The notes beneath the pieces are model-generated. The model was not told the DNA's origin and ran no database searches. It saw only the letters and a program-made list of their open reading frames with translations. The position numbers and the translations under genes are program-made. A stretch of 64,000 nt of DNA from Escherichia phage vB_Ec-M-J. This document shows, in pieces, positions 8,418 to 46,097 of this stretch. Each line of letters begins with the position of its first letter. Positions within the stretch are counted from its first letter, which is position 1. The stretch lies in sequence record OQ718158.1. One strand, written 5' to 3'.

Positions 8418-8458
8418 AGATTTTATCAAGACAACATATTAATTTAAGGAATACAAAA

Positions 8459-8782
8459 ATGGCTAAAACTATCATTAACACCGTTTCCCTGGCTGCAATC
8501 CGTGCAATCAATGTTGACGGTAAACGTTGGACTGATTCATATGGCAATACTTATCATTCTTGTCATGTAAGCGTTGAACTGGATAACGGTTTGAATGATC
8601 TGGCGGTTGAATCATTTACTTATGGCTATGAAGATGCATATCAACAAACGGCGTTATCTCTCTTAAAGGAATCAGTAGACGGGCTTAATACTGATGAAAC
8701 CTCCCTTACTCGTGTGTGCAATGATCTTAATATCCCGTTGCATTGTACTGTACAGAATGTTAAACGCAAAAAAGATCTTTAA
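8459..8782 (+). CDS. hypothetical early protein; paralog of 14956..15279
   Basis: track ORF; shares RWTDS(Y/H)GNTYHSC.VS...FTYGY...KRKKD with 14956 gene. Confidence 0.7.
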   Translation: MAKTIINTVSLAAIRAINVDGKRWTDSYGNTYHSCHVSVELDNGLNDLAVESFTYGYEDAYQQTALSLLKESVDGLNTDETSLTRVCNDLNIPLHCTVQNVKRKKDL

Positions 8783-8861
8783 TTAGCTTTACTTTATGCA
8801 GATACTTTGATATAGTGTCTGCATAGGGGAAAGAAATTAAACTACTTAAGAGGATCGTATA

Positions 8862-9131
8862 ATGAAAAATATCAGTACTTTAATCGATGCAGGTACTCAT
8901 GTTCGTCGGTCTATGGTTGCAACCAGTACTACAAAACAAGTAGCGAGCGGTTATCTTGTATTTGTGCACGATGGTAAACTCCTGGAACGTTCAATCAATT
9001 TTGATGTTAAAAACAATTGCCGTTTTATTATCTTTAAGCGTGAGCAATATAAAATTGATTTACCAGCAAAGCCCATTAGTGGGGCGTACAACGTGCAATC
9101 ATTGTTTGAACGTCAACCATACACCTATTAA
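8862..9131 (+). CDS. hypothetical protein (89 aa)
   Basis: track ORF; RBS AAGAGGA. Confidence 0.55.
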   Translation: MKNISTLIDAGTHVRRSMVATSTTKQVASGYLVFVHDGKLLERSINFDVKNNCRFIIFKREQYKIDLPAKPISGAYNVQSLFERQPYTY

Positions 9132-9182
9132 TCAAAACATCGTTAGCGGTCGATTCAGGCCGCTTATATTGGGGATTATACC

Positions 9183-9455
9183 ATGAACGTTAATCAAGTA
9201 CTGAATGAGATCGAAAGCATCATTAAACCGATGAAGCGTACTGATGCTATGTTAACACCGGAAGAATGCCGCCTTTATGAGCGTTACAGCGTCGAACAAG
9301 TCCAGGCAATGGCTATGGCTACCCCAGCCGTTAAACCGCCTGAGAATGCGTTACAGGACGTTACAGGGGATTATATCATCAATCCAGTACTAGGGAAGAT
9401 GGCTGCAATCACCGAAGATCAACAAGACTACTTAAGCCAGTACTTAAAAGGTTAA
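9183..9455 (+). CDS. hypothetical protein (90 aa)
   Basis: track ORF; RBS GGGGA. Confidence 0.55.
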   Translation: MNVNQVLNEIESIIKPMKRTDAMLTPEECRLYERYSVEQVQAMAMATPAVKPPENALQDVTGDYIINPVLGKMAAITEDQQDYLSQYLKG

Positions 9456-9460
9456 TTAAT

Positions 9461-9670
9461 ATGCTTACTGTACAGGATAAGATCGACATCTTAAAGGTTA
9501 ATATGTATGTGATTGATGCAGTACCTGGTAAAGTATTTGCCTACGATGACACCACTGTAAGCGATTTCTACTATAGCCAGGCCGTGGGGGATCTTTCTGT
9601 ACAGTCGGTTATTGAAAACGTAGTTAATGCAGCGTATGAGCATTTACTTTCAAATAGTACTTGCAATTAG
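9461..9670 (+). CDS. hypothetical protein (69 aa)
   Basis: track ORF; 3' end runs into next promoter -35. Confidence 0.5.
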   Translation: MLTVQDKIDILKVNMYVIDAVPGKVFAYDDTTVSDFYYSQAVGDLSVQSVIENVVNAAYEHLLSNSTCN

Positions 9671-9720
9671 TTTTTAAACGCGTATAATGTTTTACATGAA
9701 GGGGAGAAATGATTCTCCCC
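9661..9720 (+). promoter_or_regulatory. early promoter + 5' stem-loop
   Basis: TTGCAA-16-TATAAT; hairpin GGGGAGAAatgaTTCTCCCC. Confidence 0.6.
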
Positions 9721-9739
9721 ACTAATTAAGGAATATGAA

Positions 9740-9886
9740 ATGAAAGCATCAAAAAAGAGTACTAACAAGAAAGCACGTTCAACCTTAGATGGGGTATTCC
9801 CTTTACGTTTCGTTGATGAAGTGGTTTCCTACCCGCCTGGCCTTACTCCTGAGATGGTAGAAAGTTTGCGTAAATCTAAAAAATAG
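9740..9886 (+). CDS. small basic protein (48 aa), not in ORF track
   Basis: ATG after RBS AAGGAA following promoter-hairpin. Confidence 0.5.
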   Translation: MKASKKSTNKKARSTLDGVFPLRFVDEVVSYPPGLTPEMVESLRKSKK

Positions 9887-9889
9887 TAC

Positions 9890-9949
9890 TTGCAATTAGT
9901 TTTTAGTACTGTATAATGTTTTACATGAAGGGGAGAAATGATTCTCCCC
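9890..9949 (+). promoter_or_regulatory. early promoter + 5' stem-loop
   Basis: TTGCAA-16-TATAAT; hairpin GGGGAGAAatgaTTCTCCCC. Confidence 0.6.
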
Positions 9950-9967
9950 AATAACAGGAGAAACAAA

Positions 9968-10120
9968 ATGAAACAATACAACGCTCGGTTTGATGTTACT
10001 ATCGGTAACGGCAAAGGTCAATTCTCTTTCAGTACTCGCAAAAGTTATACAGAAAACTTCCTGCGTAATTGTGCACTGACCGCCGCACAAATTAAACATT
10101 ACTTTCAGGCTAAAAAATGA
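9968..10120 (+). CDS. hypothetical small protein (50 aa)
   Basis: start moved to ATG after RBS AGGAG. Confidence 0.55.
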   Translation: MKQYNARFDVTIGNGKGQFSFSTRKSYTENFLRNCALTAAQIKHYFQAKK

Positions 10121-10206
10121 AATCATTAGCTTACTATAGTTCTGCGGTGATCGGTGCATTGATCGCGGCGTTGTTAGTAACCTATCTATTCTTTATGGTG
10201 ATTTAA
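10117..10206 (+). CDS. small hydrophobic peptide (29 aa, one predicted TM helix)
   Basis: ATGA overlap with upstream stop; MKSLAYYSSAVIGALIAALLVTYLFFMVI. Confidence 0.4.
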   Translation: MKSLAYYSSAVIGALIAALLVTYLFFMVI

Positions 10207-10350
10207 ATGAATCCAACAGGTTTAAACTATAAAAGTTGTTCGGCGTTTACGAAAGCAAATAAAGCGAATGCACGTAAAGCGAAAGTACAGGAATACATCA
10301 AGCAAGGCATGACGCGAAAAGCGGCGATTATAAAAGCTAAAAATAAATGA
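10207..10350 (+). CDS. small Lys/Ala-rich basic protein (47 aa)
   Basis: ATG immediately after upstream TAA. Confidence 0.4.
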   Translation: MNPTGLNYKSCSAFTKANKANARKAKVQEYIKQGMTRKAAIIKAKNK

Positions 10351-10440
10351 AAAAAGTGGTTGACTCCGGTCAGCCATTTTGCTATTATATATTCATTGAG
10401 AGATAGCTCACTAGCCCACAGGGTGCATAAGTGTATCTAT
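10351..10440 (+). promoter_or_regulatory. composite element: terminator-like hairpin overlapping promoter, then conserved box
   Basis: AAAAAGTGGTTGACtccgGTCAGCC; TTGACT-17-TATTAT; TAGCCCACAGGGTGCATAAGTGTATCTAT. Confidence 0.55.
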
Positions 10441-10481
10441 TATATGAGTATTGAGTACTGAAAACTATTTTTAAAAAGTAC

Positions 10482-10541
10482 TTGCAAACTATCTCAATAA
10501 GCGTATAATGTTTTACATCGAGAGGGGGAAACGGTTTCCCC
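10482..10541 (+). promoter_or_regulatory. early promoter + 5' stem-loop
   Basis: TTGCAA-16-TATAAT-GTTTTACATC; hairpin GGGGGAAacggTTTCCCC. Confidence 0.65.
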
Positions 10542-10561
10542 TGGTAATAAGGAAACAAATC

Positions 10562-10903
10562 ATGACTATCTCAATTGCTCAATCTAACTTTGAAAATGAA
10601 ATCATCGCCCAGGCACTGCGTTTAAATGATGGTCGGGCCGAAATTAATTACGGTTTCAATTCAGGCGGTTGCGAAAACTATCAGTACTTTGTAACGGCTG
10701 ATGGCGGTGTCCTGGGTATCAATACAGTTATTGTAAACATCCAAAAAATTAATTTCAATGATCCAGACGATAGCCAGTTTTACATCACTGGCGTAGACGT
10801 GAACTATGAGGATGACTCACTAACTGATGATCACACTGGCGAGCGGTTAGAAAGTGCATACGGTGAAGATGATTATCAGTCCGGTCCAGAAGATTTCGAA
10901 TAA
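10562..10903 (+). CDS. hypothetical acidic protein (113 aa)
   Basis: start moved to ATG after RBS AAGGAA. Confidence 0.65.
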   Translation: MTISIAQSNFENEIIAQALRLNDGRAEINYGFNSGGCENYQYFVTADGGVLGINTVIVNIQKINFNDPDDSQFYITGVDVNYEDDSLTDDHTGERLESAYGEDDYQSGPEDFE

Positions 10904-10916
10904 TATAAAAAATAGT

Positions 10917-10976
10917 TTGACAATAGATTATAGTACTGTATAATTAATTACATCAAGGGGAGAAAAACTTCTCCCC
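10917..10976 (+). promoter_or_regulatory. early promoter + 5' stem-loop
   Basis: TTGACA-16-TATAAT; hairpin GGGGAGAAaaacTTCTCCCC. Confidence 0.65.
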
Positions 10977-10998
10977 ACTAACAGAGAGAGAAAACAAA

Positions 10999-11211
10999 AT
11001 GGCTAATATCCGGTCGAAATTAAAAAATGCAAAACAAGTTTTATTTTCAGATCATGAATACTTTAATAAAGATATTACAGGAGTTACAAGTATCAAGGAA
11101 GTAAAAGAAAAAACCGGCGTTTTGTGTGATGTGCGATTAGTTGGGACATTTGGGAATAACGTGCTATATCGCTGCGGTGATTACAATTTTACACTGACTA
11201 TCATTAACTAA
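10999..11211 (+). CDS. hypothetical early protein (70 aa)
   Basis: track ORF; RBS GAGAGAGA. Confidence 0.6.
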   Translation: MANIRSKLKNAKQVLFSDHEYFNKDITGVTSIKEVKEKTGVLCDVRLVGTFGNNVLYRCGDYNFTLTIIN

Positions 11212-11230
11212 AAATATTATCACAGTACTA

Positions 11231-11259
11231 TTGACATAGTTTGATAGTACTGACATAAT
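11231..11259 (+). promoter_or_regulatory. class-B early promoter
   Basis: TTGACA-17-CATAAT. Confidence 0.55.
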
Positions 11260-11294
11260 AACTTTTATCAACTACACTACTAAGGAATTAAAAA

Positions 11295-11474
11295 ATGGCT
11301 ATCATCGCAAAAACTGAAATCGTTGGTCTGGATTCTATCATCATGACGTTTGAAGATCAAAAAGGTATGTATGTAGTTTCCTATGGTGATTATGTTCGGG
11401 AGTATGAAACGGTAGACGAAGCCTTTGAAAGTTATATTCGCCAGGTGAATAAAGCATACGACGACTACCGCTAA
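11295..11474 (+). CDS. small protein (59 aa), not in ORF track
   Basis: ATG after RBS AAGGAA downstream of class-B promoter. Confidence 0.5.
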   Translation: MAIIAKTEIVGLDSIIMTFEDQKGMYVVSYGDYVREYETVDEAFESYIRQVNKAYDDYR

Positions 11475-11501
11475 AATATATTACCAGTACTATTAAATCT
11501 A

Positions 11502-11529
11502 TTGACAACGTTTGATAGTACTGTATAAT
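11502..11529 (+). promoter_or_regulatory. class-B early promoter
   Basis: TTGACA-16-TATAAT. Confidence 0.55.
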
Positions 11530-11573
11530 AAGTTTTATAAACAGTAGTTAACTTAACCTAAGAGAGAAACAAA

Positions 11574-11717
11574 ATGATCGCACTGGATTCATTCATCGAC
11601 GCAGTACTGGCAAAAACTGGCGAGGATCTGACCGCAGAACAATACGCGATGATCGAGCAATGTCAGCAAAACGGTAAATCGGTGAAAGATACTGTTAAGA
11701 TTATCCGCAAGATGTAA
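11574..11717 (+). CDS. small protein (47 aa), not in ORF track
   Basis: ATG after RBS AAGAGAGAAA. Confidence 0.5.
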   Translation: MIALDSFIDAVLAKTGEDLTAEQYAMIEQCQQNGKSVKDTVKIIRKM

Positions 11718-11723
11718 TATTAT

Positions 11724-11752
11724 AGCCCACTGGTTAACGCTGGTGGGCTTTA
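11724..11752 (+). terminator. terminator-like hairpin
   Basis: AGCCCACtggttaacgctgGTGGGCT then TTTAAT. Confidence 0.45.
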
Positions 11753-11816
11753 ATCATTTACCCTATACAATGCCAGTACTAAACCGTTTATCTCGTTAGA
11801 ATGCGTTACAGGACGT

Positions 11817-12020
11817 TTGACAATGATTAGCATGAAATCAGTACAAAAACAAATAGAAACATTATCAAAAATTAAACGTAAACAATACTCGTTAGAATAT
11901 ACAATCAATGGTAACTATCATCTAATGAAAGAAAATAATTTTATAGTCATTGATGAATCATTGCAAGTTATTAGTATAGTACTGAAAGCATTAATTAATG
12001 ATAGAAAAAAATTAAAATAA
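11817..12020 (+). CDS. hypothetical protein (67 aa), AT-rich
   Basis: track ORF; no clear RBS or promoter. Confidence 0.4.
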   Translation: MTMISMKSVQKQIETLSKIKRKQYSLEYTINGNYHLMKENNFIVIDESLQVISIVLKALINDRKKLK

Positions 12021-12023
12021 TTG

Positions 12024-12052
12024 TTGACATACAATGCCAGTACTGGCATAAT
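12024..12052 (+). promoter_or_regulatory. sigma70-like promoter upstream of box and GATC cluster
   Basis: TTGACA-17-CATAAT. Confidence 0.5.
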
Positions 12053-12077
12053 ACTTACATCAAGACGAGAACGTCAC

Positions 12078-12106
12078 TAACCCATAGGGTGCACAAATGT
12101 AACTAT
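12078..12106 (+). promoter_or_regulatory. conserved box copy
   Basis: TAACCCATAGGGTGCACAAATGTAACTAT. Confidence 0.45.
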
Positions 12107-12110
12107 ATAA

Positions 12111-12190
12111 TATCGATCAATAAATGATCAAAAAAGTACTGGATCAATTTAGCATAAGGAGTATAATTCTGATCAATTCTTGATCAAAGG
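12111..12190. repeat. cluster of five GATCAA repeats
   Basis: cGATCAAtaaatGATCAAaaaagtactgGATCAAttt..ctGATCAAttcttGATCAAagg. Confidence 0.6.
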
Positions 12191-12348
12191 CAATATACGC
12201 AGTTGAATTTATATAGACAGTACAAAGGCGTTACTATCCGTGGTAATGCTGATGGATATGTAGTATCATACGGTTTGAATAAGATAAGCACTAGTAGTAT
12301 TATTGTAGCATTACAGTACTATAGTATTTTTATAATGAGGTTAAAATA

Positions 12349-14323: not shown

Positions 14324-14599
14324 ATGCGGATTCTACTGACAGCTAACGAAATCGAACAAGTACTGACTACTAACCTGGAAGACTGGAAACGTGAAGCAGA
14401 TATCCAGGCGGTTCAATGGCTTAATGATAAGTTAACGCCGGATGATTTAAGTAAGATTGTAGATCCTCAATTCTACGAAGATATTCACGACACCGCGTTA
14501 AGCGTCGAGGATGTACTTGATAAGCACTACATTGATACTGATTTACATGTTTACGGTCGTAAAAACTTTATCACTATTCACGACATTTACAATACTTAA
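14324..14599 (+). CDS. hypothetical early protein (91 aa)
   Basis: track ORF; RBS AAGGAAA. Confidence 0.65.
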   Translation: MRILLTANEIEQVLTTNLEDWKREADIQAVQWLNDKLTPDDLSKIVDPQFYEDIHDTALSVEDVLDKHYIDTDLHVYGRKNFITIHDIYNT

Positions 14600-14602
14600 G
14601 TA

Positions 14603-14662
14603 TTGACAAAGTATCTTAGTACTGTATAATAGTTTACATCGAGAGGGGAAACGGTTCCCCTC
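14603..14662 (+). promoter_or_regulatory. early promoter + 5' stem-loop
   Basis: TTGACA-16-TATAAT; hairpin GAGGGGAAacggTTCCCCTC. Confidence 0.65.
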
Positions 14663-14685
14663 CTAACAAAGAGAGAGAAATAAAA

Positions 14686-14868
14686 ATGGCTAAGTGCACT
14701 ATCTGCAAGAAAGAAATAGTATTAGTTCCAAGTGCCCGTGAACGTGCCGCTCGGTTTGGTGGCAAAGCGTCAGACTATACAAAAATGTTTACTGCCCATA
14801 CAGCTTGCCAGGTAGCAAAACGTTCACAAGAAAGCGTAGAATTAATGCGTAAACTTTCCAAAAAATAA
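14686..14868 (+). CDS. small basic protein with CxxC..C (60 aa)
   Basis: track ORF; MAKCTICKK...HTACQ. Confidence 0.6.
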   Translation: MAKCTICKKEIVLVPSARERAARFGGKASDYTKMFTAHTACQVAKRSQESVELMRKLSKK

Positions 14869-14871
14869 GTA

Positions 14872-14931
14872 TTGACAAAGTATCTTAGTACTGTATAATA
14901 GTTTACATCAAGCGAGGGGAATGGTTCCCCT
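14872..14931 (+). promoter_or_regulatory. early promoter + 5' stem-loop
   Basis: TTGACA-16-TATAAT; hairpin GAGGGGAAtggTTCCCCTC. Confidence 0.65.
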
Positions 14932-14955
14932 CCTAACAAAGAGAGAGAAATAAAA

Positions 14956-15831: not shown

Positions 15832-16086
15832 ATGATTAAGGTTCAACTATCAAACGATAATGTATTACGGGTACACTATAAAGCACCTCAGAGAATCATC
15901 ACAAAGGCCGTACAGCTTGCTAATGAGTTTATTAATGGTAACCTATTACCTAGGAAGTTAAGCAACGGGAAACTGCGTGTAATCGACGTGGACACTAACA
16001 ACAGGATAGTAATCGAGAACACAGGAAAGATAAACCTTTATGAGCATCAACAATACAATAAGAAAATAAAACTAATATCACGTTGA
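15832..16086 (+). CDS. hypothetical protein (84 aa)
   Basis: track ORF; RBS AGGA. Confidence 0.55.
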   Translation: MIKVQLSNDNVLRVHYKAPQRIITKAVQLANEFINGNLLPRKLSNGKLRVIDVDTNNRIVIENTGKINLYEHQQYNKKIKLISR

Positions 16087-16112
16087 CAGTACTCAATTGT
16101 TTTAGTACTATG
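16084..16112 (+). promoter_or_regulatory. promoter (leader duplicated at 16359)
   Basis: TTGACA-17-TACTAT; GTACTCAA.TGTTTTAGTACTAT conserved in both copies. Confidence 0.45.
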
Positions 16113-16139
16113 TACACATACCAACACGGGAGAAACAAA

Positions 16140-16358
16140 ATGAAATTATCTAAAATCGAAAAGAAAACTATTGATGAAGCAGTTAAGCACGGTTATACCT
16201 TTCGTAATGATTCACATTTTACCAATTTTCAACAAGGGTATCGTACTATTAAAAAACTAATTGACAAAGGTTTATTAGTTGAAGTCAATAACGGTAACGG
16301 TATCGAGTATCAACCAACACAGGACGCATTTTATTTTAAGAAATATAATATTATCTAA
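16140..16358 (+). CDS. hypothetical protein (72 aa)
   Basis: start moved to ATG after RBS GGGAGAAA; track start 16083 is the TTG of the -35. Confidence 0.6.
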   Translation: MKLSKIEKKTIDEAVKHGYTFRNDSHFTNFQQGYRTIKKLIDKGLLVEVNNGNGIEYQPTQDAFYFKKYNII

Positions 16359-16387
16359 TTGACAGTACTCAAATGTTTTAGTACTAT
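16359..16387 (+). promoter_or_regulatory. promoter, duplicate of 16084
   Basis: TTGACA-17-TACTAT. Confidence 0.45.
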
Positions 16388-16415
16388 ATGTACATACCAA
16401 CACGGGGGAAACAAA

Positions 16416-16658
16416 ATGATTACTTTAGAAAAACGTATCAAAGAAACTACATCGCTGGTGGAACTGTTAACAGTACTCAAATGTAAAACAACACCATTCA
16501 GCACGCCGGACTTTATTAATATGGTTGATGTTAATGGTCGCTATCGTATCACGGTCGAACAAGGAGCGGCGAAAGTATTCAGTACTAAAAACACTAAGGA
16601 AGTGATCCACGCCGTTAATGTTAAAAAAGTAGTTGCCATTGATAGTAAAGTACTGTAA
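16416..16658 (+). CDS. hypothetical protein (80 aa)
   Basis: start moved to ATG after RBS GGGGGAAA. Confidence 0.6.
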   Translation: MITLEKRIKETTSLVELLTVLKCKTTPFSTPDFINMVDVNGRYRITVEQGAAKVFSTKNTKEVIHAVNVKKVVAIDSKVL

Positions 16659-16689
16659 TATAGTTTCATTAACTCAAGGAGAACATGCA

Positions 16690-17274
16690 ATGCGTAATTA
16701 TACTAAATTCATCCGTACACTGTCAGAAATGGAAACCAACAAAGAGATCCTTTCAGCTTGTCGGTTAGCTGGACTGGAGATCATCGGTGCTGGTTCTTCC
16801 CGTATAGTATTCGCTTTAAATGATCGGTTAGTGATTAAGGTCGCGAATTGTGATGCGGGTGTAGAACAAAATGAAACTGAATGTAAGGTATGGAATTTTT
16901 TAGACTATGACCGCCCTCAGTTGAAACAGTACTTTGCAAAGGTGCATATGCATTTATGCGATCCTGATAATATGTTTATCGTTATGGATCGGTTGAGTAC
17001 TGCAAGTAAAGGCAGTGTGAAGCACGTTAACGCGTGCAATGAATTAAAGTACAATATTAAACGTAATGCAATTGAACGCCAGCACCGCTTTGCTGATGCA
17101 CTACAACACGTCGATGATACATTATCAACACTAACGATAAGAGATATCAGAAAACAGAATATCGGCCAGGATCGTAATGGCCTTATTAAAGTACTTGATT
17201 ACGGTTTAACCTGCAATATCTGGAATCAGTACTATAAAAAGCGTGATGTGGCAGCAAGTAAGGTAACACGATAA
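16690..17274 (+). CDS. putative protein kinase-like protein (Hanks-type motifs)
   Basis: IIGAGSSRIV (G-x-G loop), VIKVA (Lys), IRDIRKQN (catalytic loop), VLDYGL (DFG-like) in canonical order and spacing; RBS AAGGAG. Confidence 0.5.
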   Translation: MRNYTKFIRTLSEMETNKEILSACRLAGLEIIGAGSSRIVFALNDRLVIKVANCDAGVEQNETECKVWNFLDYDRPQLKQYFAKVHMHLCDPDNMFIVMDRLSTASKGSVKHVNACNELKYNIKRNAIERQHRFADALQHVDDTLSTLTIRDIRKQNIGQDRNGLIKVLDYGLTCNIWNQYYKKRDVAASKVTR

Positions 17275-17280
17275 AAAAGA

Positions 17281-17370
17281 TTAAAAAAGGGATTGACTCC
17301 GGTCAGTCCCTTTGCTATTATATATTCATTGAGAGATAACTCACTGACCCATAGGGTGCGGAAGTGTATC
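17281..17370 (+). promoter_or_regulatory. composite element: hairpin/promoter + conserved box
   Basis: AAAAAAGGGATTGACtccgGTCAGTCCC; TTGACT-17-TATTAT; TGACCCATAGGGTGCGGAAGTGTATCTAT. Confidence 0.55.
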
Positions 17371-17416
17371 TATTATATAAGTATTCAGTACTGAAAACTA
17401 TTTTAAAAAAAAGTAC

Positions 17417-17476
17417 TTGCATTGTACTTAGAATCAAGTATAATGTTTTATATCGAGAGGGGGAAATGGTTCTCCC
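17417..17476 (+). promoter_or_regulatory. early promoter + 5' stem-loop
   Basis: TTGCAT-16-TATAAT; hairpin GGGGGAAatggTTCTCCC. Confidence 0.6.
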
Positions 17477-17498
17477 TGGTATATTAAGGAATAAAATC

Positions 17499-17720
17499 AT
17501 GACTACAATGACTTGCATTTACGCTTCCAATCTTCTGAATGATGCGGCCTTTAATGTTGATTCAGAATATCAATGTTATCGGGATGAAAATAAAAAAGTT
17601 TTTGTAGTTGATAATAATGGTTTCCATATTGAATTACAATCCGGCTTCACTGGCGTTGATGGTAAATCAGTATGGGGCGTACAGGATGATAAAGGTACAT
17701 ATCATTTTAAACGTAATTAA
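17499..17720 (+). CDS. hypothetical early protein (73 aa)
   Basis: start moved to ATG after RBS AAGGAATAA. Confidence 0.6.
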   Translation: MTTMTCIYASNLLNDAAFNVDSEYQCYRDENKKVFVVDNNGFHIELQSGFTGVDGKSVWGVQDDKGTYHFKRN

Positions 17721-17723
17721 GTA

Positions 17724-17782
17724 TTGACAAAGTATCTTAGTACTGTATAATAGTTTACATCAAGGGGAGAATAGTTCTCCCC
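17724..17782 (+). promoter_or_regulatory. early promoter + 5' stem-loop
   Basis: TTGACA-16-TATAAT; hairpin GGGGAGAAtagTTCTCCCC. Confidence 0.65.
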
Positions 17783-17803
17783 GATACTAAAAGGAATAAA
17801 ATC

Positions 17804-18211
17804 ATGACTACTACTAATCAAGCTCGGTCCATCGCCAACGATAAAAATCATGCTGAAATGGTCGCTGGTTACATTGAAGCTATGCAATTCAGTACTGTAC
17901 ACAATGAGAACGGCGAATACCTGGAAGATTATGAATTATCAGAGCAAGCCCATCAAGCGGCAGTGATTGCATGTTCACGTTTCCTTGCTGTACATGGTGA
18001 AGATATGGAAACAGTACAAAAACACCATAATCCTGATTATACTTATAGTCATGCGGGTCATGATCTCTTTCTTACTCGCGAAGGTCACGGCACTGGTTTT
18101 TGGGATCGTGATATCGGTCACTATGATGATATATTCACTAAGTACTGCGAAGAAATCAACGTTTGCGATCCCTATGTAGGCGATGATAATCTAATCTATA
18201 TGGGCGAATAA
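17804..18211 (+). CDS. hypothetical early protein, His-rich (135 aa)
   Basis: track ORF; RBS AAGGAATAA. Confidence 0.65.
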   Translation: MTTTNQARSIANDKNHAEMVAGYIEAMQFSTVHNENGEYLEDYELSEQAHQAAVIACSRFLAVHGEDMETVQKHHNPDYTYSHAGHDLFLTREGHGTGFWDRDIGHYDDIFTKYCEEINVCDPYVGDDNLIYMGE

Positions 18212-18217
18212 AAGTAT

Positions 18218-18276
18218 TTGACAAAGTATATCAGTACTGTATAATAGTTTACATCAAGGGGAGAATAGTTCTCCCC
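18218..18276 (+). promoter_or_regulatory. early promoter + 5' stem-loop
   Basis: TTGACA-16-TATAAT; hairpin GGGGAGAAtagTTCTCCCC. Confidence 0.65.
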
Positions 18277-18298
18277 ACCAATAAAAGGAAACAAAATT

Positions 18299-19478: not shown

Positions 19479-19736
19479 ATGGATCAATTCACACAATATC
19501 GGGTAAATCCTCAATCTATGGCCTACGTAGAAGACCATAAAACGTTACCAGTACTGCAACCAGTTAAAGGCCGTATCTATCGTGGCCTTGCCTGGGATAC
19601 GGCCCAGGATGGATATAAAACCGTCGCCGTGGGGATGTATTGCGGGAATGGTGAATGGTTTGATCCTAACAATCCGATTGCACTTGACAGTACTGAAAAA
19701 ATGAAATGGGCCGACTACATCGAAGATATTTCATAA
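19479..19736 (+). CDS. hypothetical early protein (85 aa)
   Basis: track ORF; RBS AAGGGGAAA. Confidence 0.6.
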   Translation: MDQFTQYRVNPQSMAYVEDHKTLPVLQPVKGRIYRGLAWDTAQDGYKTVAVGMYCGNGEWFDPNNPIALDSTEKMKWADYIEDIS

Positions 19737-19743
19737 AAACTAT

Positions 19744-19806
19744 TTGACAGTACTAACCAGTAATGTATAATGTTTTACATAGAGCGGGGGAATAGTTCTC
19801 CCGCCA
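19744..19806 (+). promoter_or_regulatory. early promoter + 5' stem-loop
   Basis: TTGACA-16-TATAAT-GTTTTACAT; hairpin GAGCGGGGGAAtagTTCTCCCGCC. Confidence 0.6.
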
Positions 19807-19826
19807 ATAGTTTGGAGTTAAACATT

Positions 19827-27360: not shown

Positions 27361-27688
27361 TATAAAACTCAAGGTATATAAATCATTTGCAAGTACATAC
27401 ATCAAATGCCATACATGTAACTCTGTAATGGACTACAAAGGTAAGCCATTTGCACTTACTTACGATAATACAAGAGGTTTTTATATATCTTTTGCTGATT
27501 ACAAATATAACATATACGAACACATTGACATTGAAGATTTAAGTACTTTATCTGAAGAGGAATACTTTCAAGAATCATTAGTATGGGATTTGGAGTTTCC
27601 TATGTCATTGGTACATAAGATGATAGTACTAATAAAAGAAACTAAGCCTGTACCTAATGGTTATGAAGATCACATTATTGAGTATTAA
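27350..27688 (+). CDS. F2 paralog (EExxFQ-S motif protein)
   Basis: track ORF; SEEEYFQESL; N-terminal C-x-x-C. Confidence 0.6.
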   Translation: MKTNIKLKVYKSFASTYIKCHTCNSVMDYKGKPFALTYDNTRGFYISFADYKYNIYEHIDIEDLSTLSEEEYFQESLVWDLEFPMSLVHKMIVLIKETKPVPNGYEDHIIEY

Positions 27689-31511: not shown

Positions 31512-31811
31512 ATGCTGTATACATTAACATTAATATATGTAGAATTAGAATCCGATTCAGATGCATGGAATTTGGTTAAAGAGGTCGATACCAATCAATG
31601 GTACATGGCAAATTTAGACGCACAGGTTGTTACGGATTATTTTATAGATTTTAATACATTATCTGAAGAAGAATTTTTCCAAATGCAATTGGTGGTTGAC
31701 ATGTACGGACATGACATGGTAACATTAAGAAATATACAGAAAGCCGTTAATGAATTCCAAAGCAAGAAAGATTATGAGGTAGGAGCGTATTATGACATCG
31801 ACGTACAGTGA
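31512..31811 (+). CDS. F2 paralog (MLYT type)
   Basis: ATG 1 nt after upstream stop (track 31500 in frame); SEEEFFQMQL. Confidence 0.55.
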   Translation: MLYTLTLIYVELESDSDAWNLVKEVDTNQWYMANLDAQVVTDYFIDFNTLSEEEFFQMQLVVDMYGHDMVTLRNIQKAVNEFQSKKDYEVGAYYDIDVQ

Positions 31812-40569: not shown

Positions 40570-41012
40570 TGTACGAAAGTGATCTTAAGCACGCTGAAGA
40601 ATTAGTTAATATAGTAAAGTTCTTTCAAAATAATATAAAGTACTTAGACTATAAAGGGGCATATATTAGTACTATAAGTGTTGGTACTGATATTCTAGGA
40701 TTAGGTAATGAATATAAGTACGAGTCACATGATTATGATTTGGAATTCAAGTACTTCGTATGGGATTCTGGAACTTTCTATTATATAGAGGAAGGTGGAA
40801 AATATTTTGAATTCACAGAAGAAGAAGTACTATTTTTAAATTCAGAAGATGCTTACTTCCAGTACAGTACTATATACCCAAATGGGGCGTTAAGAGCTTT
40901 AGTAGTTTTTAATGCATTCCTGAAAGAGAACTTTAATAATTCTATATTCATTGATTTAGATTATGTATATGAACTAAATCAGGTGATATATATGGAGTCC
41001 AGAGAAAAATGA
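40569..41012 (+). CDS. F2 paralog
   Basis: track ORF; EDAYFQYST. Confidence 0.55.
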   Translation: MYESDLKHAEELVNIVKFFQNNIKYLDYKGAYISTISVGTDILGLGNEYKYESHDYDLEFKYFVWDSGTFYYIEEGGKYFEFTEEEVLFLNSEDAYFQYSTIYPNGALRALVVFNAFLKENFNNSIFIDLDYVYELNQVIYMESREK

Positions 41013-45742: not shown

Positions 45743-46097
45743 TACAACAACAATTCAGTACATGACGGATGGCAATGATTGCTTTGCTTCAAGATATGAA
45801 TTCATCAAGAACCATTTTGTAACCTATATCCCTGAATATAATCAGTTTTATCTACAGATTTACCAAAATGATTCATATATGAATGAGATATATTCTGAAA
45901 TAAAAATCCCTGATTATAGTACTTTATCAGAAGAGGAATTGTTTCAGGAGAGCACTGTCAATACTGAAGATGTGTACGAACTAATGGAATACCAGAAGGT
46001 ACTTAAATATTTCCATGAAGTTCAGGATATACAAATGGATAGTGTTAAAACGTGGAATTATAACACATACGAGGTAAATTATGTTCGAAATGATTAA
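45735..46097 (+). CDS. F2 paralog
   Basis: track ORF; SEEELFQEST. Confidence 0.55.
   Translation: MHNTTTIQYMTDGNDCFASRYEFIKNHFVTYIPEYNQFYLQIYQNDSYMNEIYSEIKIPDYSTLSEEELFQESTVNTEDVYELMEYQKVLKYFHEVQDIQMDSVKTWNYNTYEVNYVRND

Follow-up and report, generated by a model that had tools for sequence, protein, structure and literature searches.

Introduction

Phage kinases have lately gained in importance. The T7 gp0.7 kinase (T7K), the product of an early phage gene, has been shown to be hyper-promiscuous and to disarm several bacterial defence systems; it contains a DPV motif in place of the DFG motif (PMC13645617). The T7K kinase domain (aa 1-242) comprises an N-terminal helical extension, a glycine-rich loop (G-loop; LGNGHFSAAY), a VIKV motif, a catalytic loop with sequence DMHSGN (D195-x4-N200), and the DPV Asp, D213, and ends about 27 aa past D213; T7K also has a C-terminal shut-off/DNA-binding domain. 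Here, we report a computational analysis of a gene at positions 16690-17274 (+ strand; stop codon counted in) of a 64,000-nt stretch of DNA from Escherichia phage vB_Ec-M-J (sequence record OQ718158.1), the whole of which we refer to as 'the window'. The gene encodes a 194-aa protein (22.4 kDa; pI 9.1) that exhibits the conserved residues and predicted fold of a minimal member of the protein-kinase-like (PKL) superfamily and that, as shown below, resembles T7K in architecture but lies outside the T7K family.

Two other groups of kinases provide points of reference. Hanks-type protein kinases (PF00069; for example, MKK4, MKK7, PAK1, BTK, and PknB) have a kinase domain of about 260 aa that contains a GxGxxG G-loop, an HRDxKxxN catalytic loop, and, in subdomains VIII-XI, an activation segment with APE, a helix F Asp, and helices F-I. 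HopBF1-type minimal bacterial effector kinases, which pathogens introduce into their hosts, are likewise about 200 aa long and have a stripped-down kinase fold; in these two respects they resemble the protein analyzed here, a likeness that we regard as a lead only, HopBF1 not being among the structural matches listed. A preliminary description of the DNA, made from the letters alone, had proposed that the gene is an early-region gene and that its product carries kinase motifs in canonical order and spacing, consistent with a minimal Hanks-type kinase fold.

Results and discussion

Kinase motifs and their conservation

The open reading frame (ORF) of the preliminary description is present exactly where it had been placed, and its product contains, in order, the sequence elements expected of a kinase catalytic core. 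The first element is a G-loop, IIGAGSSRIV (aa 31-40; 16780-16809), in which G35-S36-S37-R38 is a family signature and which aligns with the G-loop of MKK7. The second is a β3 motif, VIK (aa 48-50; 16831-16839), which includes the ATP-anchoring Lys, K50. The third is the start of helix αC, G57-x2-Q60-N61-x2-E64 (16858-16881; QNETE at aa 60-64), in which E64 is the αC Glu that pairs with K50. The fourth is a catalytic loop, IRDIRKQN (aa 150-157; 17137-17160), in which D152, R154 (D+2), and N157 (D+5) align with HRDxKxxN of MKK4 and MKK7. The fifth is DYG (aa 170-172; 17197-17205), the equivalent of the Mg-binding DFG. The distance between D152 and D170 is 18 residues, which is the canonical distance between HRD Asp and DFG Asp, as between D166 and D184 of PKA. 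The last element, seen in the structure model discussed below, is a short C-terminal helix, NIWNQYYK (aa 175-182; 17212-17235), that replaces the activation segment; the protein ends 12 residues past this helix and 22 residues past DYG. All of these elements are encoded on the + strand. Order and spacing of the motifs are thus canonical, as had been proposed.

Residue conservation in the family provides stronger evidence that these are real kinase motifs than does the motif-pattern search described below. All counts that follow refer to an alignment of 120 homologues (alignment A3) that share about 25% identity, with 15% mean column identity. Eight columns are invariant (G35, S36, R38, K50, G57, Q60, D170, and G172), and four more are nearly so (S37, 118/120; N61, 119/120; E64, 117/120, with D in the rest; and Y182, 115/120). 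The D152 column contains D in 111 and E in 9 of the 120 sequences, and G159 is conserved in at least 90%. Because the K50, E64, D152, and D170 columns are conserved, the classical Lys/Glu/Asp/Asp constellation is preserved; that is, the β3 Lys, αC Glu, catalytic Asp, and Mg-binding Asp that characterize the PKL superfamily are all present as conserved residues. Other catalytic-loop and DYG positions vary more: position 154 is R or K in 82/120, position 171 is Y in 83/120 and F in 11/120, the position preceding the catalytic Asp is G in 80/120 (yielding a family consensus 'GDL'), and conservation does not extend to the His and Arg of HRD. To the classical constellation the family adds signatures of its own: GSSR in the G-loop, G-x2-QN-x2-E at helix αC, and an aromatic helix at the C-terminus.

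A regular expression requiring the ordered motifs with kinase-like spacing was run against all 281 six-frame ORFs in the window and matched none but this one. Among 9,200 shuffled sequences derived from the 46 long ORFs it matched none; when the kinase-like ORF alone was shuffled 20,000 times, it matched once. We treat this result as supporting evidence, since the pattern was composed after the fact.

Sequence-profile comparisons with Hanks-type kinases

Comparisons with sequence databases place the protein nearest to protein kinases. In a Pfam scan, the top match was Pkinase (PF00069; E = 0.0035, 17.2 bits), and the RIO1 and Kdo/Bud32 Pfam families gave no match at E ≤ 10; Pfam cut-offs were reached by none of the 120 family members in the alignment, and an NCBIfam scan of the protein yielded no match. 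A PADLOC search yielded weak matches to the kinase defence protein PD-T4-6. The protein matches PHROG 4301, annotated as 'unknown function', across nearly its full length (aa 3-188; E = 4.3e-41). A single-sequence search of the PDB gave a best match at E = 0.0094. Profile searches of the PDB gave 256 sequences at E ≤ 1 for a 13-sequence profile (including MKK4, at E = 1.5e-4, MKK7, and DYRK1A) and 806 sequences at E ≤ 1 for a 33-sequence profile (including MKK4, at E = 1.6e-5, BTK, and PAK1), in both cases nearly all protein kinases. The alignment with MKK7 from the 13-sequence profile runs from the G-loop through the catalytic loop to DFG and keeps each of these elements in register, and the alignments with MKK4 from both profiles cover the catalytic loop and DFG. 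Since only these narrower profiles (A1 and A2) reach protein kinases, the sequence similarity to Hanks kinases is concentrated in the Asteriusvirus/RaK2-type part of the family.

The profile results, together with the conserved catalytic residues and the kinase-like model described below, support the reading of the protein as minimal and protein-kinase-like, with Pkinase as top, though sub-threshold, Pfam match and almost only protein kinases as PDB profile matches. The attribute 'Hanks-type' in the preliminary description holds only in the sense of 'minimal', and the protein differs from Hanks kinases in several particulars. The protein has 194 aa vs. the about 260 aa of a Hanks kinase domain; its G-loop reads GAGSSR, with the invariant Arg R38 in place of the third Gly of GxGxxG; its catalytic loop retains the D and N of HRDxKxxN but lacks the His and has Arg at the Lys position; and it has nothing past the DFG equivalent that corresponds to subdomains VIII-XI.

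Predicted structure

A structure model calculated with AlphaFold2 (AF2) from the 13-sequence alignment was poor (predicted local distance difference test (pLDDT), 50.7). The model calculated from the 120-sequence alignment has a pLDDT of 93.3 and a predicted template-modeling score (pTM) of 0.90. In the latter model, the N-lobe comprises two N-terminal helices, β1, the G-loop, β2, β3 (with K50), helix αC (aa 55-73, with E64), and β4/5, the hinge follows, and the C-lobe comprises helices D and E, the catalytic loop (aa 150-157), β7, β8, DYG, the helix at aa 175-182, and the end of the protein. The bilobal architecture that the preliminary description implied is therefore seen in the model, as a two-lobed nucleotide-binding fold with an N-lobe β-sheet and helix αC. 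According to the model, the C-lobe is reduced to the catalytic core and lacks an activation segment, P+1 loop, APE, and helices F-I.

Searches with the model retrieve kinases and kinase relatives. The figures listed for fold matches are 9.5 for SAICAR synthetase (PurC), 9.0 for APH(2''), 8.6 for STK17A, 8.3 for FAK and PknB, 7.3 for Rio2, 7.1 for TkArkI, and 6.7 for Ark1. To our knowledge, PurC does not use the Lys/Glu/Asp/Asp constellation, and PurC had no sequence-profile match among the matches listed. Foldseek returned OSR1, MEK1, APH(2''), Lpg2603, and PRPK, with PRPK as the best match (TMq 0.49). Among viral predicted structures (BFVD), orthologues match best (TMq 0.85-0.89), followed by kinase-annotated phage proteins. 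The latter include T7K homologues, which are the top BFVD matches from any characterised family and match the model better than does any PDB kinase (E from 3e-6 to 5e-5): the kinase of Pantoea phage SK1, which is 47.5% identical to T7K (TMq 0.56; E = 3.4e-6), that of Yersinia phage fPS-53 (TMq 0.55), and A0A7L7SMK1 (TMq 0.51). Because the model matches kinases, APH, and T7K homologues, we conclude that the predicted fold is kinase-like.

The results bear on whether the motifs could be a chance resemblance in a protein of unrelated fold or function. The single-sequence scores are weak (Pfam, sub-threshold at E = 0.0035; PDB, E = 0.0094), and the first, shallow-alignment model was poor, as such a resemblance would have it; however, the motif residues form invariant columns in a 120-sequence family, the deep-alignment model is confident and kinase-like, and the ordered motif pattern is absent from 9,200 shuffles, so that we regard chance resemblance as effectively excluded.

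Comparison with T7K

The protein and T7K share a common layout: an N-terminal helical extension, a G-loop, VIK(V), DxxxxN, and a Mg-binding Asp at +18. In both, the kinase domain is likewise truncated shortly after the Mg-binding Asp. The two differ in sequence and in domain content. Where T7K has DPV and GNGHFSAAY, the protein has DYG and the GSSR and QNxxE signatures; the C-terminal shut-off/DNA-binding domain of T7K has no counterpart; and T7K belongs to PHROGs 2828, 15752, and 18305 (Pfam PF27024), whereas the protein belongs to PHROG 4301 only. Alignment of A2 to T7K with hhalign was colinear through every motif over 132 columns and was not significant (probability 11.5%, E = 0.0026), alignment of A3 to T7K gave nothing (probability 0.07%), and no significant relationship with T7K was obtained by hhalign with T7K as a single sequence or as a 15-sequence alignment. 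Membership in the T7K family is ruled out by the difference in PHROGs, the non-significant hhalign results, and the presence of DYG rather than DPV. We conclude that the protein is T7K-like in architecture and stands outside the T7K family.

The two kinds of gene can occur in one genome. Phage fENko-Kae01 (OR228459.1) contains a T7K-like gene at 321338-321871 and a homologue of the present gene at 16257-16775, that is, at separate loci. The paper describing phage Sharanji lists WNN14432.1 and WNN14351.1 as two kinases, and WNN14351.1 is the Sharanji orthologue (gp063). The 64-kb window itself contains no T7K-like gene.

Proposed function and alternatives

Taken with the conserved residues and the predicted fold, the comparisons make it very likely that the gene product is an ATP-dependent PKL enzyme. 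We propose, more specifically, that it is an active minimal member of the PKL superfamily with a normal N-lobe and a cut-down C-lobe. By analogy to canonical kinases, K50, paired with E64, would serve as anchor for the ATP phosphates, D170 as Mg ligand, and D152 as catalytic base, and R154 would occupy the position of the Ser/Thr-kinase Lys; R38, Q60/N61, and Y182 probably complete the active-site cleft, replacing the missing activation segment. The gene, located in a terminal repeat (see below), would be transcribed early by host RNA polymerase. The role of the product would most likely be to phosphorylate host, and possibly phage, proteins in host takeover or counter-defence, analogous to T7 gp0.7. 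The proposal as a whole, comprising an active minimal PKL kinase, early expression, and a protein substrate, is in our judgment somewhat likelier to be right than wrong. The basic residue at D+2 (82/120) resembles that of Ser/Thr kinases and provides a hint as to substrate, and the embedding of family domains in a tape-measure protein (P0132; see below) counts in favor of the proposal as an effector-like use elsewhere in the family.

Several observations weigh against the proposal. The Pkinase score of 17.2 bits is below the gathering threshold of 31.7, and the broad A3 profile gave no PDB match at E ≤ 0.01. All peptide-substrate-binding elements of Hanks kinases (activation loop, P+1 loop, and helices F-G) are absent from the protein. 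Position 157 (D+5), which is Asn in the protein, is Asn in 31 of 120 homologues and is otherwise S (41), H (28), T (15), or Q (5). Among similarly reduced relatives, Rio and Bud32 work mainly as ATPases and Ark1 phosphorylates RNA. Early timing rests on promoter consensus, and the promoter match of the gene itself is weak (9/12). The depletion of Ser, Thr, and Tyr seen in T7K-bearing phages was not significant here, with 17.2% in early-region proteins vs. 18.9% (p = 0.16, with crude gene calls). The literature search found no functional study or published assay of any family member, the annotation-level mention in the Sharanji paper being the only one.

The missing peptide-binding elements are also what one would expect of a PKL-fold kinase with a non-protein substrate, either a small molecule, as for APH, choline, and Kdo kinases, or a nucleic acid such as tRNA/RNA, as for the archaeal 2'-OH RNA kinase Ark1. 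APH and Ark1 match the model as well as protein kinases do, the family consensus 'GDL' resembles the (H)GDL that is the catalytic-loop form in APH, Rio, Bud32, and Kdo kinases, the protein is basic (pI 9.1), and one distant, giant fused ORF, P0121, contains a 2H phosphoesterase and a CCA-adding enzyme beside family domains. However, the Brenner motif, HxDxxxxN, is incomplete in the protein, which lacks its His, and, because the protein ends 22 aa past DYG, there is no C-terminal helical substrate-binding subdomain of the APH/choline-kinase type; APH enzymes have both, their subdomain binding antibiotic. The profiles match Hanks-type kinases, and not APH, choline kinase, or Rio, and the D+2 residue is basic as in Ser/Thr kinases. 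PRPK/Bud32, RIO1/2, and Ark1 in particular show no sequence-profile match and only moderate fold similarity, have a His before the catalytic Asp that is missing here, differ in G-loop and αC signatures, and are cellular ribosome or tRNA factors, whereas the present gene is a putative phage early gene. P0121, for its part, is very distant from the protein and may be a gene-calling fusion. We consider a non-protein substrate unlikely, although it is the main alternative to the proposal.

Absence of a substrate-docking lobe would likewise suit a kinase-fold nucleotide-binding switch, ATPase, or scaffold of the Rio/Bud32 kind, or a pseudokinase, that binds a host target without phosphorylating it, and some family members (P0020, P0022, and P0025) lack the GxG glycines. 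Pseudokinases usually lose at least one catalytic residue. No such loss is seen in the protein, in which the catalytic residues are all intact, and D152 and D170 are conserved family-wide. We judge a non-phosphorylating role improbable; because an ATPase needs the identical residues, an ATPase is hard to separate from a kinase by sequence.

An active protein kinase, the reading we favor, would have several consequences. A family of more than 2,000 uncharacterised phage proteins would gain a tractable model in E. coli, the protein would illustrate how small a kinase C-lobe can become in nature, and a candidate early host-takeover or counter-defence effector relevant to Asteriusvirus phage therapy candidates would be at hand. 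If the protein were instead an ATPase or a kinase with a non-protein substrate, the function of PHROG 4301 would still be defined.

Start site and selection

The ORF, as read from the window sequence, begins with ATG at 16690 and ends with TAA at 17272-17274, and a ribosome-binding site, AAGGAG (16676-16681, + strand), read directly from the sequence, is located 8 nt before the ATG. A mechanical ORF list gave a longer ORF with a TTG start at 16633. We rejected this start as unsupported, because all homologues start MRNY/MK.. and public records annotate an identical 585-nt coding sequence (CDS). Orthologous 585-nt CDSs are annotated in phages ph0011, fEgEco12, and Sharanji. Codon changes relative to three orthologues are 8-13 synonymous vs. 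1-2 non-synonymous; the gene is therefore under purifying selection. A search of the 64-kb window with the family hidden Markov model (HMM) identified no paralogues of the gene.

Family distribution, annotation, and domain architecture

The 2-kb region around the gene is 94-98% identical to 41 records of Asteriusvirus jumbo coliphages (about 350 kb), including PBECO4, 121Q, G17, Sharanji, and fEgEco12. The window is from a phage of this genus (PBECO4/121Q/G17 group). By tblastn, the protein is present in 59 isolate phage records, all but one of 310-386 kb, the exception being a 51.8-kb Klebsiella phage record; carriers include Klebsiella phages RaK2 and K64-1 (36% identity), Salmonella phage SE_PL, Erwinia phages, Xanthomonas phage XbC2, Yersinia phage fHe-Yen9-04, and Pectobacterium phage CBB. 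An exhaustive HMMER search of 1.84 billion cluster representatives (50% identity) identified 2,071 family proteins at E ≤ 1e-3; the stricter cut-off of E ≤ 1e-10 left 245. A second family search identified 478 proteins at E ≤ 1e-5; among the 120 matches listed from that search none has a precomputed Pfam domain, and the fused regions of ten longer family members contain no recognisable Pfam domain.

The kinase assignment repeats, at the level of annotation, what several database records and one paper already state, with function there unknown. The orthologue is labelled 'protein kinase domain-containing protein' in ph0011, 'PknA' or 'serine/threonine-protein kinase' in Turkey3 and Turkey5, and 'putative protein kinase' in SE_PL and fENko-Kae01; a UniProt/BFVD entry for PBECO4, truncated at 147 aa, is labelled 'Protein kinase domain-containing protein'. 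The majority of records label the orthologue hypothetical. In fEgEco12, the two terminal-repeat copies are labelled unequally, g044 as 'serine/threonine-protein kinase PRP4' and g658 as 'hypothetical protein'. Both PRP4 and PknA are artefactual names, transferred automatically from best hits. The literature searched contains no description of the family (the GSSR and QNxxE signatures, the truncated C-lobe, and the absence from Pfam), nor of the terminal-repeat position, the amplification, or the fusions.

Sequence alignments define the signature of these roughly 200-aa 'mini-kinases' as G-x-G-S-S-R, K, G-x2-Q-N-x2-E, D, D-Y-G, Y. We raise, as a tentative suggestion, that they constitute a large phage family outside Pfam and a second broad class of effector kinases, independent of T7K. 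It is similarly possible, though doubtful, that the present protein is the best-cultured representative of a family that has spread by tandem amplification, intragenic repetition (3-6 copies), and tape-measure insertion. If the mini-kinases are active effector kinases, produced or delivered as infection begins, they would form a host-takeover or anti-defence class, and diversification against different host targets could explain the paralogue arrays. At least one sequenced jumbo phage of this group, fENko-Kae01, and, by published annotation, Sharanji have a T7K-like gene beside a second, unrelated minimal kinase.

Homologues in contig and cluster data show further arrangements. A 42-kb Logan contig (SRR14234030) contains, at 8456-12197, five adjacent mini-kinase paralogues of 223-256 aa (family HMM E from 1e-66 to 1e-82), located within a phage replication module (RNR, DnaB, and PolA) and oriented opposite to it. 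GSSR, K, QNxxE, and DYG are retained in all five, and the catalytic Asp is in GDL or ADL in four, the fourth copy (10763-11434) having YIDL instead. P0021 (693 aa), P0023 (923 aa), and others contain three to six complete tandem mini-kinase copies per polypeptide; such multi-copy polypeptides may reflect either genuine intragenic repetition or the fusion of separate genes in gene calling. P0132 (3248 aa) is a tape-measure protein with PhageMin_Tail at aa 125-315 and family domains at about aa 650-1200, in the form of two mini-kinase copies (..GSSRLFIP..KVA..GIAQNEKE..LIDIGL..) embedded in it, together with a third G-loop that is kinase-like, a fusion that suggests that some family members enter the host along with the DNA. 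P0121 (2130 aa) contains one family domain, three further kinase-like domains, GNAT (a weak match), 2H phosphoesterase (2_5_RNA_ligase2), and a CCA-adding enzyme (PolyA_pol head and RNA-binding domain); either the family is tied to RNA repair or tRNA functions, or P0121 is a gene-calling fusion.

Terminal repeat, promoters, and neighboring sequence

The physical ends of the fEgEco12 genome have been determined experimentally and define a direct terminal repeat of 20,993 bp (PMC13070987). The fEgEco12 orthologue is at 16161-16745 and at 369901-370485. Because the orthologue lies in both copies of the repeat, the kinase-like gene is in an approximately 21-kb terminal repeat, with two copies per virion genome.

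Window positions 1-20.7 kb contain at least 23 copies of an 80-96-nt promoter cassette, located before nearly every small gene. The cassette consists of a -35 element, AAAAAGTACTTGCAA/TTGACA (TTGCAA/TTGACA), a 17-nt spacer, a (TG)TATAAT -10 element, GTTTTACAT, a conserved, GC-rich 5' leader hairpin (GGGGAGAAnnnnTTCTCCCC), a ribosome-binding site, and ATG; examples are at 14590-14670, 14859-14939, 17404-17484, 17714-17802, 18205-18296, and 19731-19811. The extent of the cassette array matches the approximately 21-kb direct terminal repeat of fEgEco12. A promoter scan identified six 12/12 matches to the sigma-70 consensus within the 5.5 kb from 14.5 to 20 kb. Because the region is packed with sigma-70 consensus cassettes, early transcription by host RNA polymerase appears most likely, and early, host-polymerase-driven expression of the kinase-like gene is a reasonable inference from promoter-like sequence. 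The placement of the gene in an 'early region' in the preliminary description accordingly agrees with both the promoter architecture and the terminal-repeat position.

The gene itself is preceded by a degenerate cassette, TTGCCA-17 nt-TG-extended TAATAT (16633-16661, + strand), which matches the consensus at 9 of 12 positions, lacks the 5' hairpin of full cassettes, and aligns with the neighboring 12/12 cassettes. Two near-identical promoter/leader copies of about 60 nt (16083-16142 and 16359-16418; TTGACAGTACTCAAxTGTTTTAGTACTAT...; 10/12 sigma-70 matches) precede two small genes just upstream and may drive a short operon that includes the kinase-like gene. Just past the stop codon are a 12-bp, terminator-like stem-loop (17286-17313, + strand) and, overlapping it, a promoter-like site, TTGACT-17-TATTAT (17293-17321, + strand), each a consensus match only. 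None of the eight neighboring genes scanned gives a functional hint: each either lacks a PHROG or is of unknown function.

Two further features of the window are repetitive. Positions 757-916 contain 8-nt periodic tandem repeats (GGCTAGAT / GGCTAAAC / GGACGGCT ...), which could be a terminus- or replication-related element. In 27000-53000, many adjacent + strand ORFs of 160-210 aa share a coding motif of approximate sequence LSEEEYFQ (for example, at 27536-27573, 31647-31684, 40842-40877, and 45912-45949), which points to a large paralogous gene family that, downstream of the terminal repeat, fills much of the window.

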